Positions 24,886 to 50,557 of a stretch of 64,000 nt of DNA are shown piece after piece. Position numbers and translations under genes: made by a program. Below the pieces are notes generated by a model, which saw nothing but the letters and a program-made list of their open reading frames with translations, had not been told where the DNA came from and ran no database searches. Source of the DNA: Octopus vulgaris (lineage: Eukaryota); assembly GCA_951406725.2 (NCBI GenBank), contig OX597814.1:133300001-133364000 (forward strand), given 5' to 3'. Numbering within the stretch: the first letter of the stretch is position 1; each line of letters opens with the position of its first letter.

Positions 24886-24965
24886 GCGACTCGCTGATGA
24901 AGCTGGCCTTAGCAAACATATTCTGTGTTTTGCTAGAAAGAAGCAGAAACCGCGGTACGAGTTGT
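24886..24965 (+). ncRNA. Type I hammerhead ribozyme (array copy 3)
   Basis: Stem I GCGACUCG/CGAGUUGU, core CUGAUGA, long stem II with a UAGCAAA/UUUGCUA hairpin, GAAA, palindromic stem III ACCGCGGU, predicted cut after GUA (24957). Confidence 0.82.
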
Positions 24966-25330
24966 TAAAGTTATCGGTAAACGTTTTTGATTTTCACTCT
25001 CGATAAATTCATCCCCTTTTTGTGTTCCAAGCACTCGGCATCTTTATTTAGGAGCCCTTAATTGTATAACTACATGAATAATATTTTTCTATATGAATAA
25101 TATTTTTGTCTTATGACTAATTCGTCTTTTGTGCTGGGCACCTGGTAGTAAATAATATTACTACCCTTCTTGTTTATATTCGCATACTACATGATGAATT
25201 TATTCGTAAAATTCTTCCCGGCATGCCCGTGTAAATTTTGCGTCTGCGCAGAGATTTGAAAAGTTAAGATCTGCTAGTAGTCGGGTTTAACACATAGCCC
25301 CACATCGCTGCAGACCTCGATTAAATTCAG

Positions 25331-25410
25331 GCGACTCGCTGATGAAGCTGGCCTTAGCAAACATATTCTGTGTTTTGCTAGAAAGAAGCAGAAACCGCGG
25401 TACGAGTTGT
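25331..25410 (+). ncRNA. Type I hammerhead ribozyme (array copy 4)
   Basis: Identical to 24886-24965. Confidence 0.82.
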
Positions 25411-25775
25411 TAAAGTTATCGGTAAACGTTTTTGATTTTCACTCTCGATAAATTCATCCCCTTTTTGTGTTCCCAGCACTCGGCATCTTTATTTAGGAGC
25501 CCTTAATTGTATAACTACATGAATAATATTTTTCTATATGAATAATATTTTTGTCTTATGACTAATTCGTCTTTCGTGCTGGGCACCTGGTAGTAAATGA
25601 TATTACTACCCTTCTTGTTTATATTCGCATACTACATGATGAATTTATTCGTAAAATTCTTCCCGGCATGCCCGTGTAAATTTTGCGTCTGCGCAGAGAT
25701 TTGAAAAGTTAAGATCTGCTAGTAGTCGGGTTTAACACATAGCCCCACATCGCTGCAGACCTCGATTAAATTCAG

Positions 25776-25855
25776 GCGACTCGCTGATGAAGCTGGCCTT
25801 AGCAAACATATTCTGTGTTTTGCTAGAAAGAAGCAGAAACCGCGGTACGAGTTGT
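25776..25855 (+). ncRNA. Type I hammerhead ribozyme (array copy 5)
   Basis: Identical to 24886-24965. Confidence 0.82.
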
Positions 25856-27189
25856 TAATGTTATCGGTAAACGTTTTTGATTTTCACTCTCGATAAATTC
25901 ATCCCCTTTTTGTGTTCCCAGCACTCGGCATCTTTATTTAGGAGCCCTTAATTGTATATATATATATATATATATATATATATATATATATATATATATA
26001 TATATATATATAGCGGCGTATGTACACTTTGGTTGAAATGATTAATACGGAAAACAGAGTGTACTGGAAGCTTTAATTAGGACAACAATCGTTTCAGCTT
26101 AATTCTGCACTGCTCCCTAGTGTGCGGGGAAGGATTTAATGGAAGCGAATGCACGCCTACCTAAGCTTTAATTCTAAATACAAATTACAGATAGATAGAT
26201 AGATAGATAGATAGATAGATAGATAGATAGATAAACAGACAGATAGACAGATAGATAGATAAACAGACAGATAGACAGCTAGATAGACAGATAGATAGGC
26301 AGACAGACAGACAGCCTGCTTTTATGCGTATGCATTTTAACACGAATTTAAGTAAAATAACAATTACCTATATATTTATATTTTATTACCATAACATAAA
26401 TTGAAATGATTTTTGCTATGCCAGCGTATATTTGACGGAATATTATCTATACTCATATTAATAGTCAGAGAAATAACTTTAACTTCGCTTACTAAGACAC
26501 ATTTAATATTGAATTACGTACATGTTATTTCATTGAAACGCTTTGATTATTAGAAAAGTCGGGCCTAAGAAGAATATATTTCGACGTTCGTAAGATACCC
26601 TGACGGTTTAATTATGCAATGTGATACAAATCTACAGGATTTATATCAAGAAATTTATATAATGTTATCTAGAAGTGACATGAAAGAAATCTTATTTCTT
26701 GTTGAGTATTAATATATGTGCGTCTCTTCTATTATCTTTTCTCATGCACAAACACACTCTCTCACTCCCCTCTCTATCTCTATCTCTCTCTCTCTCGATG
26801 TATATATTGATATGTATACTTATATACACATACATATATATATATATAAATATATATATATATATATATATATAAATTCCATGATCATTAGCACAATTAT
26901 AATTAGGGTTCAGCAAAATTTGCTTCACCACATACCGAAATTTAGAAATAGTAGTTAAATACTATTCCACTACCATAAGATATCTCCCAGACAGCAATAC
27001 TCTACAACTCACGCAGGTGAAGAGAAAAAATAACGAATCTACCCGTCTTTGATTAACTATATACGCGTTTCTGAGTTAAAGAGATTTAAAAAGATGTAAA
27101 GTCATATTTCTACTCACTTATTCCCTTCTACAGAATAATATTTCAATTTTAAATTTGAGAGCACTGATAATTAACATACGTACTCGACC

Positions 27190-47350: not shown

Positions 47351-47703
47351 GTATGTGTGTATGCATTTATACATACCTATATATATATATATATGCGTAT
47401 ATATGTATATCTATCTATCTATCTATCTCTTTCTTTCTCTCTCTCTCTCTCTCTATATATATATATATATATATATATAGGACTCAATAGAGAGGACTCA
47501 ATAGCAATTACACCCCCACCAAAGGTAAGAATAAAGCCTTAGACTGCTATTGTGACTACATAACTAATTTCCCGTTTCAATTCATCAAGAAACAAAAACA
47601 CAGCCCTAACTTCAACAAAAGAGAATGGAACGACCTCATCAAACTAAGAGAAGACAAAACAATAACAATTAAGGAGGCAGATAAGGGCAACGCGATAGTA
47701 ATA

Positions 47704-49541
47704 ATGAATACAAACAATTATAAAAATTTAGTGCTATCCCTATTAAGAGATGAAACGTATTATGAAAGGGCCCAACAGTATAACCAGCAAAAAATAATGC
47801 ATAACCTTAGGACATTAATCAACACATACCAAGAAGGACTCACGAACAAGGAGTATGAATACATCACTAACTTCAAATGCAAATCGAGTTTGTTCTATGG
47901 TATCCCTAAGGTACACAAAAGCCAAACCATTAGAGAAACGTGCAAAACATCCACCGACACACTCATCAAAATCCCTTCACCAAATGATATTAAACTAAGA
48001 CCGATAATAGCAGGACCAGCATGTGAAACTCACCGCCTCAGCAATTTCTTAGACACACTTCTTAAACCTTTCCTAAAACACATCAAAAGCTACGTAAGAG
48101 ACGATATAGATATGCTCAACCACCTCCCTAAAACAGTCAATGAGAAAACCCTTCTAGTATCATTCGACGTAGTTAATCTTTATTCTAACATCCCTCACAA
48201 CCTAGGAATAGAAGCGATCACCTTCTGGCTGAATAACTACCCCTTTGAACTCCCAACTCGCATAAACAAAGACCTTATAATAGAAGGACTTAGATTCATT
48301 TTAGAGAACAATTATTTTATTTTTGACAATGATTTCTACAGGCAAAGATCGGGAACAGCGATGGGCACGCGTACTGCACCATCTTTTGCCAACCGAGTGA
48401 TGGGATACCTCGAGAAAATACTATACCGGATGACACTCGAGAAATATGGAAACACCTTCGCCACCTATATCCATAACAACTGGAAAAGATACCTCGATGA
48501 CTGTTTCATCATCTGGGACAAAGGTATAGAGAAACTTGAGGAATTTAAAATACTATTAAATGGAATAAATGACAATATACAATTCACGATGGACCACAAC
48601 GAAAAAGAATTACCATTTTTAGACATCCTCATTAAGAAAACCGGCAACAAAATAGAGACAGATATCTACTATAAACCGACAGACTCTAAACAGTACCTAC
48701 CCTTTGATTCATGCCACCCACGACACACTAGAATGAATGTCCCTTTTTGTTTAGCTAGAAGGATTTGCACCATAATATCAGACACAAACACCCGACACAC
48801 ACGTCTCACAAATAGAAACTATCCACAGCCCCTAATAGACAGTGCAATCCAACGGGTACTTAAATTAAGTATAGAAGACCTGAGACAAACAAAACCAAAA
48901 AAGAAAGAACAATTAAAAACCCTTCCCTACATTTCTACACACAACCCACTCAACAATGAGGCCTTCAACACCATACTACAAAGCACAGCCCTACTAAAGG
49001 GAGACCCAAAGATGAACGGATCCTCGAAACACACACCATCATTAAAAGTAAACGGCAACCAAAATCCTTGAAAAGGATTTTAACCCAAGCTACACTGCAC
49101 TCAACATCAACCACAAAACCAGCAGTTAGAAAATGTGGAAGGCCCAACTGCGGAATCTGTGTCATCTTGAAAGAAGGATCAGAATTTATACTGGAACAAG
49201 GCCACCAGTTCACCATTAGAACAAACTTCACCTGCGCATCAGAAAACTTAATTTACGTCATAACATGCGCAGGCTGCAATAGGCAGTATATAGGCCATAC
49301 AAAAAATAGCTTACGTAACAGGATGGCGGTGCATAAATCACAAATTAGAAACCCTGATTACCGCAAAATACCGGTCAGCGGACACATAGATAGATGTGCT
49401 GGAAATGTAAATCCGAAATTTACAACTAACCCGCTCTATAAATTCAGTGACAACGCAACCTTCACACAACGCCAAAATAAAGAACTATATTTCATAAAAA
49501 AATTTAGACCAAGTTTAAACACCCTGGGCCAGGAATACTAA
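47704..49541 (+). pseudogene. PLE RT + GIY-YIG, one frameshift (~49020) and a short in-frame deletion
   Basis: YGIPKVHK, SFDVVNLYSNIP, RYLDDCF, CGRPNCGIC, NLIYVITC...YIGHT. Confidence 0.9.
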
Positions 49542-49704
49542 AACAAAAGATAAGTCCTCCGAAAAGGAGAAGTAAAATTCCACCACGACCGCTACTTCAA
49601 ACAGACACTCACTCTGACGGAAATATACCTAAGTAAAAAAGGGAAAAAATTCTTTCGTGCAAATCTGACCCTGATACACACGATACAGCTAAGGGTCACA
49701 CCCG

Positions 49705-50255
49705 ATTCTGATTGGTCAACAAGTTGATGACGTCTAGCTCAGCTAGAATGGACAGGATACAAACAGGGGACAGTCATTAGTCAGAATATTGATGACGTCC
49801 TTTTCTGCTTGAATAGTCACCTAACAAGTACACACACAGGGGGCAGATCTAATGTAGCTATAAGTCGTGATTGGGCAGAATCTGCATGACGTCCCGTTCT
49901 GCTTGACTAACGAAGCGACTGGTCAGGACAGGAAACAAACAAGAGGCAGTTATAATGCAGCGATTGGTCAAAATAATGATGACGTCCCGTTCTACTTGAC
50001 TAACGAAGCGACTGGTCAAAACAGGAAAACAAACAAGAGTCAGTTATAATGCAGCGATTGGTCAAAATAATGATGACGTCCCGTTCTACTTGACTAAAGC
50101 CACCTAACGAAACGATTGGTCAAAACGTTGATGACGTCACGCTACGCTAAATTGACCACCTAACAGGCATTATAAAACCGAGCACTTCACAAAAACTCAT
50201 TAGAACCACCCAGCGAACATCCACCATGGGTCATCACATTTGCTTAAGGTAAAAA
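49705..50255 (+). promoter_or_regulatory. Candidate pLTR Pol II promoter: repeated ATTGG + TGACGTC, TATA box, Kozak ATG, splice donor
   Basis: Six TGACGTC (perfect TGACGTCA at 50132-50139), most preceded by GATTGG. TATAAAA 50171-50177, CCACCATGG 50221-50229, AG|GTAAAA at 50249. Confidence 0.6.
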
Positions 50256-50515
50256 TGAATTCCTCGCTCTTTCGGAAACATCAATCTTCTGTATTGACCG
50301 CTTTCCACCACTTTGATCTGTTTTTTGTATTGAATACGTATCGCCACCGTGGGCCACTGCATCGAACACTTTGAACATATACTTCAAACTATATATCAAC
50401 TATACATGAACTATATATCAACTATACATGAACTCTAAGATGTCTGACTCCGTTGTGTATTATAAATGAATTTCTTGTGTTTGACGGATTGAGCTGTCTT
50501 TTTTTATATATAACT

Positions 50516-50557
50516 TTTTTTGATAAAGTTCATTTCAGGAACTGAAACATGTTATAA
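50516..50557 (+). ncRNA. Minimal hammerhead, U3-A8 variant, weak stem I
   Basis: UUGAUAA-AGUUC auuucag GAACU-GAAA-CAUG-UU with palindromic ACAUGU. Confidence 0.62.

Follow-up and report, generated by a model that had tools for sequence, protein, structure and literature searches.

We identified hammerhead motifs in the Penelope-like elements (PLEs) of Octopus vulgaris in which the tertiary pair between nucleotides 3 and 8 is C3-G8, U3-A8, G3-C8 or A3-U8, depending on the family. In PLE families with any of these four consensus pairs, the likely function of the motifs is to cut element RNA as dimers, and the persistence of the pair through each swap is likely due to selection for that cutting; from the sequence evidence below, we give this reading a probability of about 0.8. 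The paired swaps are thus likely to imply selection for active motifs, activity being deduced here from covariation. We additionally propose a broader and more tentative reading, which taken as a whole falls slightly short of an even chance: that natural active G3-C8 and A3-U8 hammerheads (approximately 7,000 copies in one genome) are unreported, arose several times in PLEs and complete a four-way 3-8 covariation; that purine/pyrimidine flips crossed the mismatch step by trans-cutting in ribozyme dimers; and that CUGANGA censuses overlooked the class altogether, which may extend to ribozymes in PLE clades now described as lacking them.

Hammerhead motifs in the window

The window (the whole 64,000-nucleotide stretch of contig OX597814.1 that was analysed) was searched with a descriptor carrying N at positions 3, 7, 8 and 9, and hence blind to 3/8 pairing. 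Among the 19 matches, 17 scored at least 11, a cut-off set after the list had been seen, and 16 of these 17 had a Watson-Crick 3-8 pair. Forty local shuffles gave a mean of 1.35 matches (maximum 5), with Watson-Crick pairs in 16 of 54 pooled shuffle matches. The six cores listed in a first-pass annotation of this DNA (CUGAUGA, CUGAUGC, UUGAAAA, UUGAUAA, GUGAACA and GUGAUCA) were all recovered at or near the places given, positions being those of nucleotide 3, and every listed motif has the stem I, stem II, GAAA or GAUA and self-complementary stem III attributed to it. The range given for them, 24886-50557, needs widening: the PLE1 CUGAUGC pair (19522, minus strand, and 23207, plus strand) is real but lies outside it. 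A further canonical motif, absent from that annotation, occurs at 63264 on the plus strand.

The canonical C3-G8 motifs include those of a tandem array:

23755..25995, no strand assigned: tandem array resembling a non-LTR retrozyme, its 445-bp units arranged as two inverted arms, each full unit with one canonical C3-G8 hammerhead
23968..24049, minus: array hammerhead, inverted arm, CUGAUGA, nucleotide 3 at 24040
24413..24494, minus: array hammerhead, inverted arm, CUGAUGA, nucleotide 3 at 24485
24885..24966, plus: array hammerhead, CUGAUGA (C3-G8), nucleotide 3 at 24894, 8-nt palindromic stem III, predicted cut 3' of A17
25330..25411, plus: array hammerhead, copy 2, CUGAUGA, nucleotide 3 at 25339
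25775..25856, plus: array hammerhead, copy 3, CUGAUGA, nucleotide 3 at 25784

The array has the features of a non-LTR retrozyme, namely tandem units within 150-450 bp, each with a type I hammerhead, and no long ORF. The remaining motifs belong to PLEs, in which the hammerhead sits near the 3' end of a pLTR and the pLTR copies are inverted or tandem:

19484..19528, minus: PLE1 3' pLTR hammerhead, CUGAUGC (C3-G8, C9), nucleotide 3 at 19522
20051..23022, minus: PLE1 ORF, RT frame, with a GIY-YIG endonuclease in a second frame
23201..23245, plus: inverted PLE1 pLTR, second copy of the PLE1 hammerhead, nucleotide 3 at 23207
32715..32758, minus: PLE2 hammerhead, UUGAAAA (U3-A8), nucleotide 3 at 32752
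33402..34766, minus: 5'-truncated PLE2 copy, RT and endonuclease
35110..35153, plus: PLE2 hammerhead, U3-A8, inverted pLTR, nucleotide 3 at 35116
35312..35355, minus: PLE2 hammerhead, U3-A8, inverted pLTR, nucleotide 3 at 35349
37221..39575, plus: open PLE2 ORF, 784 aa, RVT_1 and C-terminal GIY-YIG
40410..40453, plus: PLE2 3' pLTR hammerhead, U3-A8, nucleotide 3 at 40416
41763..41801, plus: family B pLTR hammerhead, GUGAUCA (G3-C8), GAUA, nucleotide 3 at 41770
44431..44481, minus: family A hammerhead, GUGAACA (G3-C8), nucleotide 3 at 44474, 7-bp stem I, 5-bp stem II
45112..45162, plus: family A hammerhead, G3-C8, right arm, nucleotide 3 at 45119, palindrome with a private change
47491..49541, plus: PLE3 ORF, frameshifted copy, RT and GIY-YIG
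50512..50561, plus: PLE3 3' pLTR hammerhead, UUGAUAA (U3-A8), nucleotide 3 at 50520, imperfect stem I

PLE2 and PLE3 have the EN+ layout (RT followed by a C-terminal GIY-YIG); PLE1 gave a weak GIY-YIG match, and its RT no Pfam match. Of the two family A motifs, which sit in an inverted pair of pLTRs, the minus-strand one is on the left, and its partner at 45119 carries a private C in the palindrome, where 99% of the aligned depth has T. The family B motif lies in a solo 3' remnant of a PLE2-like element, and its stem II is one G-C pair.

Stem I has five to seven Watson-Crick pairs of eight in most window families and four in PLE1, whose stem III is an imperfect palindrome (4 of 6 paired). The stem I of PLE3 has two U-U mismatches, and its 10.1-11.1 pair is A-U or G-U, not G-C. 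Nucleotides U4-G5-A6, A9, G12-A13-A14-A15.1 and U16.1 are intact in the array, PLE2, PLE3 and families A, C and D. PLE2, PLE3 and C (U3-A8, itself an accepted variant), A and B (G3-C8) and D (A3-U8) lack the literal CUGANGA of the C3-G8 form, and are therefore classed as variants of the minimal type I hammerhead. Judged by sequence, the window holds minimal type I hammerheads in PLE terminal repeats, together with the retrozyme-like array. Rfam gave no matches in the window at gathering scores; in the 150 matches listed out of 165, HH9 scored 22.9 bits on two PLE2 copies, against a threshold of 52.

Distribution and origins of the 3-8 pair

Family A has 6,147 matches genome-wide against none in the control, with G3-C8 in 95 of the first 100; family B has G3-C8 in 57 of 64 copies, and its position 7 takes all four bases. 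PLE3 copies are U3-A8 in 40 of 42 cases. A blind CCGG-palindrome descriptor, with positions 3, 7 and 8 free and the remainder of the core fixed, returned 5,750 matches against 320 in the control; 90 of the first 100 listed fall into four families, and by hand count 86 of these 90 are Watson-Crick paired (U-A, A-U or G-C). The class with purine 3, pyrimidine 8 and a tiny stem comprises 943 matches against one in the control, and the first 100 contain 74 A-U, 22 G-C, 2 G-U and 2 A-C. Blind searching accordingly uncovered A3-U8 families, so that with C-G, U-A and G-C all four pairs occur in one genome. Some motifs have a stem II of only 1-2 bp. A loose W-rich palindrome pattern performed at control level (44,999 against 43,417).

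Families A, B, C and D are tied to RT/GIY-YIG ORFs by tblastn, and at loci picked by the GIY-YIG protein alone the 3/8 picture is unchanged. All 13 family consensus states are Watson-Crick paired at 3-8 (permutation 2e-6, for families that are not phylogenetically independent). The consensus of the variant window families is G3-C8 or U3-A8, neither canonical nor random, so that the consensus states named in the first-pass annotation as refuting its reading did not appear. As that annotation had anticipated, CUGANGA descriptors miss such variants, here at least 6,147 motifs of the G3-C8 family and 943 of the purine3/pyrimidine8 tiny-stem class; Rfam misses them too.

The RT/endonuclease tree requires at least four changes of 3-8 state, and rejects families A and B as one clade (p-AU 1e-59). 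This tree holds 15 of 27 rows and no reference sequences, has long branches that meet at the root, and leaves out the single-copy J, the ribozyme-less I and K, duplicates, and the locus L158, the last because its ORF falls with family C and its ribozyme is that of family D. It leaves a sister grouping of B and D unsettled (support 52/79). The independence of the families, as first claimed, holds for A and B, which lie on RT lineages that are not one clade, but not for PLE2 and PLE3, which group together, so that their U3-A8 is probably a single inherited change. Copies inside a family are not independent, and the effective sample is approximately four to five changes.

Fewer independent double changes would be needed if G3-C8 had arisen once and the ribozyme module had then recombined between PLE lineages, which we consider improbable, though it is compatible with selection for cutting. 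Four stem I letters beside the core are common to A and B, the two share the entire core in some copies, and nested and chimeric loci occur (L028, L158). Against this, the stems II and III and outer stem I of A differ wholly from those of B; A has the bulge, the beginning of stem II and the UU at the cut site in common with PLE1, its sister by protein; and the B lineage itself includes A3-U8 copies. The family A ORF, PLE1-like with a C-terminal endonuclease at five loci, is approximately 45-59% identical to that of PLE1 (C3-G8), with a common stem II layout. Those five loci led us to reject an identity of family A with Naiad, and its pairing with a PLE2-like ORF in L028 was rejected because L028 is a junction. 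The pLTRs around two A3-U8 copies share 64-80% identity with those of the G3-C8 family B. An established G3·U8 intermediate family was likewise rejected, as the 11 G3·U8 copies found genome-wide are scattered on B or D backgrounds.

Probable selection for cutting and its alternatives

In the hammerhead, G12 acts as general base and the 2'-OH of nucleotide 8 as general acid. Base 8 would be needed mainly as the partner of base 3, so that a Watson-Crick pair of any kind could hold nucleotide 8, and selection for cutting, as we propose, would keep the 3-8 pair at each swap. Where stem III is merely a palindrome, it is predicted to join two RNA copies by base pairing, and in such a dimer each core would cut its partner after nucleotide 17. 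In this trans geometry an intact partner could still cut a copy with a mismatched 3-8, offering a plausible route past the mismatch that lies between the two states of a purine/pyrimidine flip, and wobble pairs may be the path for C-G to U-A and for A-U to G-C. A double-hammerhead dimer is the predicted minimum fold for the array and for A3-U8 family D, and partly so for PLE2 and C; it is not for PLE1, PLE3, A and B, and family B is predicted to form a competing hairpin.

Other positions are also consistent with a hammerhead fold. Among 17 copies hand-picked from four lineages, each of the six stem I pairs changes on both sides, pairing is 89% against 26-41% in slid controls, and 3-8 is paired throughout (6 A-U, 6 G-C, 4 U-A, 1 U-G); G10.1-C11.1 is present in all 17, C and CCGG being partly imposed by the search pattern. 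In the CCGG class, G17 is at control level (70 against 71) and H17 numbers 5,750, so we rejected the idea that loss of C3 frees G17 from the C3-G17 trap described in PMC3884650. Assembled contigs of four sequencing runs, labelled as four organisms, held no variants of at least 3% at positions 3 or 8.

The fold, including 3-8, could alternatively be kept for a non-cutting role such as protein binding, dimerisation or template positioning, with cleavage slow or incidental; we regard this as unlikely, marginally more so than a single origin of G3-C8. Two papers describe insertion in vitro without a need for cleavage and a lizard PLE with no RNA ends seen at the cut site (PMC11167929), as well as low in vitro activity (PMC4209133). 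Core variants occur in some lineages: most family B copies have U14, part of PLE1 has C9, 5 of 11 family G copies have C4, and both family H copies have GCAA in place of GAAA (C13). Within family C, one sub-lineage carries U3·G8, present in two separate insertions, and a damaged stem I, and for two PLE groups no hammerhead was found in the DNA examined. Selection for cutting is nonetheless favoured, as pairing at 3-8 and avoidance of G17 belong to the catalytic conformation, and nearly all families, protein-only finds included, retain G12 and U4-G5-A6. That the motifs are dead relics, paired by chance and ascertainment, is very improbable: the independent changes are few and the CCGG search had the rest of the core fixed, but positions 3, 7 and 8 were free and GIY-YIG-only loci agree, all 13 family states are paired, four double changes would all land on a pair with a chance of approximately (1/3)^4 = 0.012, and PLE3 is young, its copies being 98-99% identical with many open frames of 781 codons.

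The benefit of the hammerhead to PLEs has been described as unclear (PMC8557442). The 3-8 pair is part of the active-site conformation, and its repeated compensatory swaps give direct comparative evidence for selection on the catalytic fold; the families supply natural wild-type, single-mutant and sister-family constructs. Naiad elements were called hammerhead-free by a search with a cuganga core test, and G-C and A-U forms escape searches for the standard core.

Comparison with known systems

Several of the papers below were available to us in part, and statements about them refer to those parts. The PLE min-HHRs of Cervera and de la Pena 2014 (PMC4209133) resemble the motifs here in their location, which is in pLTRs or solo fragments of them, in having a palindromic stem III, a G10.1-C11.1 pair and an extra nucleotide following position 9, and in their predicted dimers; PLE hammerheads are slow in vitro in that work. 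Natural swaps had been called uncommon in the first-pass annotation, which does not hold for U3-A8: approximately 1,300 matches were published there in Schistosoma mansoni PLEs, so this pair is not rare. Fig. S3 of that paper has a U3·G8 row as well and, among the rows examined, no G3 or A3 row, whereas here G3-C8 (thousands) and A3-U8 (hundreds) are family consensus. The first natural 3-8 covariation, U3-A8, was reported by Perreault et al. 2011 (PMC3088659), also with a very short stem II; the available part names U3-A8 only, and core mutants were left out of the final alignments.

In the literature covered, the sole form of G3-C8 that we found was an engineered rescue, A3-U8 was absent, and neither had a natural example; the PLE survey alignments of Lunse et al. 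2017 lie outside this coverage and are the main risk to novelty. According to a review (PMC6765202), that study described small PLE hammerhead variants with a short stem III that cleave as dimers.

The C3G/G8C swap partly restored cleavage in the Anolis PLE hammerhead (PMC11167929), and in a deep scan (PMC9901934) the epistasis between its two changes was strong and positive. Rescue in the scan was confined to the G-C swap and other double mutants were low, which counts against A3-U8 and U3-A8 in that context. The engineered G3-C8 of these papers (mentioned also in PMC3884650) is active in vitro and identical to the natural swap here, although the former are laboratory mutants and the latter natural lineages. 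Finally, the 445-bp array resembles the metazoan non-LTR retrozymes (PMC7229834; bioRxiv 10.64898/2026.07.22.740005), which are likewise tandem units with type I hammerheads, but differs in its long (45-nt) stem II and inverted arms.

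Hammerhead motifs in the window and their carriers

All the hammerhead cores named by the first-pass annotation were found in the window, although two PLE1 copies, whose cores are present, lie outside the range that it gave. PLE denotes Penelope-like elements.

Hammerheads of the window, with the nucleotides at core positions 3 and 8
23755..25995, 445-bp tandem array in two inverted arms: five copies, C3-G8
19522 and 23207, PLE1: two copies, C3-G8, with C9
PLE2: four copies, U3-A8
PLE3: one copy, U3-A8
44474 and 45119, family A: two copies, G3-C8
41770, family B: one copy, G3-C8

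A descriptor left free at positions 3, 7, 8 and 9 returned 19 matches, of which 17 scored at least 11, a cut-off chosen once the match list had been viewed; positions 3 and 8 formed a Watson-Crick pair in 16 of these 17. Local shuffles of the window (n=40) gave a mean of 1.35 matches, with 16/54 paired, and the three unpaired window matches are single occurrences at chance level. An Rfam search of the window found nothing reaching threshold; among the matches listed, those to HH9 on two PLE2 copies stayed below it.

Within the PLE terminal repeats (pLTRs), which are also present as inverted copies, the motifs are located close to the 3' end. The PLE2 and PLE3 ORFs contain an RT followed by a C-terminal GIY-YIG domain, for which the match in PLE1 is weak. 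Remains of a PLE2-like ORF occur upstream of family B loci, and family A is tied to a PLE1-like ORF (~45-59% identity) in 5/7 extended loci; PLE1 and PLE2-like proteins share only ~26% RT identity.

The family A pLTR forms a large inverted duplication (44335-45280). Many short family A copies (window 45075-45250, L001-L030) begin ~20 nt ahead of the ribozyme, directly after a splice-acceptor-like sequence, and have an ~11-nt inverted repeat common to both ends, which may set the truncation point. A canonical type I hammerhead, CUGAGGA with a long stem II, lies in a dispersed repeat (63258-63345, + strand) with similar sequence in L047, L185 and L200, and L219 holds a further canonical hammerhead with a long stem II. 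The window, from a 2.8 Gb genome, is microsatellite-rich; by eye, it contains two broken mariner-like transposase genes (149-904, 42412-43445) and fragments resembling LINE RT C-termini and an ORF1-like protein (14845-15471, 27080-27532, 55009-55446, 29700-30236).

Family states at positions 3 and 8 across the genome

Matches listed from genome-wide searches are the first 100 of each, so that proportions reflect the start of the genome. Among these, G3-C8 occurred in 95/100 for family A (6,147 matches; 0 in a reversed control); family B had G3-C8 in 57/64, with all four bases at position 7, and PLE3 had U3-A8 in 40/42, with loop II differing among sub-families. The proposed G3-C8 and U3-A8 pairs are thus family-level states. 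At family A positions 3 and 8, no variant of at least 3% was found in four public runs, each labelled as a different organism, the same runs showing strong variation in loop II.

A blind CCGG-palindrome pattern gave 5,750 matches (control 320). The 100 listed, split by hand count, comprised PLE2 (41, U-A), family C (26; 23 U-A, 3 U·G), family D (17; 16 A-U, 1 A·A), family B (6, G-C) and 10 without family assignment. Family D, one copy of which was also among loci picked by protein alone, contributes a fourth pair, A3-U8. This family (L128, L129, L133, L231 and genome matches of the tiny-stem class), with a 2-bp stem II and C17, has several hundred genomic copies and is absent from the window. 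The tiny-stem purine3/pyrimidine8 class gave 943 matches (control 1), those listed being 74 A-U, 22 G-C, 2 G-U and 2 A-C; G3-U8 totalled 11. In the CCGG class, G at the predicted cut-site position 17 was avoided (70 matches, control 71). Canonical C3-G8 families are still abundant: the CG-palindrome class gave 17,273 matches (control 2,403), those listed being mostly C3-G8.

Covariation, core drift and independence of the changes

In an alignment of 17 hand-picked copies from lineages B, B', C and D (INDEPENDENCE), whose core and palindrome columns were partly set by the search pattern, positions 3 and 8 were paired in 17/17, and stem I showed two-sided changes at all six pairs; in slid controls the paired fraction dropped to 26-41%. 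None of the families examined was fixed for a 3-8 mismatch. One family C sub-lineage has U3·G8 in two insertions (L283, L285), together with a damaged stem I, the 3' strand being without one base at its start.

Against selection for cleavage, other core positions drift in some PLE lineages: U14 and a competing hairpin in family B, C9 in PLE1, and changes in families G and H. C stands at position 4 in 5/11 family G copies (sub-lineage L256, L261, L266, L269, L273), and GCAA replaces GAAA (C13) in 2/2 copies of family H (L226, L232), which has a U3-A8 core. In L278, a divergent PLE ORF is followed by a U3-A8 motif with G9, present as a single copy. For two PLE groups (L254, L257, L268, L272, L275; L265, L271), the DNA examined downstream of the endonuclease yielded no hammerhead. 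In the accessible parts of the published work, a deep scan of hammerhead mutants describes rescue for the G-C swap alone (PMC9901934), and insertion in vitro proceeds without cleavage (PMC11167929). On sequence grounds, the G3-C8 and A3-U8 motifs are predicted ribozymes.

The double changes had been proposed to be independent, and a 15-row RT/endonuclease tree requires at least four state changes at 3-8. It rejects families A and B as a single clade (p-AU 1e-59) and gives no decision on B+D; PLE2 and PLE3 cluster (support 81/97), so that their U3-A8 is probably a single event. Exchange of the ribozyme module between A and B is possible, as they have four stem I letters in common, but the layout of A is that of PLE1. 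Two A3-U8 copies within pLTRs 64-80% identical to family B (L281:93-138, L282:88-133, a sub-lineage with a partial core duplicate upstream) suggest one more change between A-U and G-C, which lies outside the tree as these copies have no protein. The independent sample is therefore four to five double changes, every one ending paired.

Proposed mechanism and known systems

Nucleotides 3 and 8 pair, and an engineered G-C swap at least partly restores activity, according to the accessible text of PMC11167929 and PMC9901934; that of PMC6155905 identifies G12 as the general base and assigns the general acid role to the 2'-OH of nucleotide 8. RNAs would join via the palindrome into a double hammerhead. 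For family D and the array, the predicted dimer takes this form, its stem I being shared by two molecules, so that each core would cut its partner. An intact partner could then cleave even a mismatched core, offering a route over two-transversion flips, and the remaining 3-8 changes would be passable through wobble pairs. Judging from the accessible portions of PMC4209133 and PMC6765202, the likely biological use is processing of the element's transcript.

Natural U3-A8 hammerheads are already published (PMC3088659, PMC4209133, as far as accessible). We found no report of natural G3-C8 or A3-U8 in the accessible literature, whose unsearchable supplements may contain such rows, nor either pair in the accessible rows of PMC4209133 Fig. 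S3. Partial, dispersed copies of the 445-bp array unit were seen at L155:4725-5009, L077 and L210. The array itself resembles the non-LTR retrozymes, and its features fit that class.
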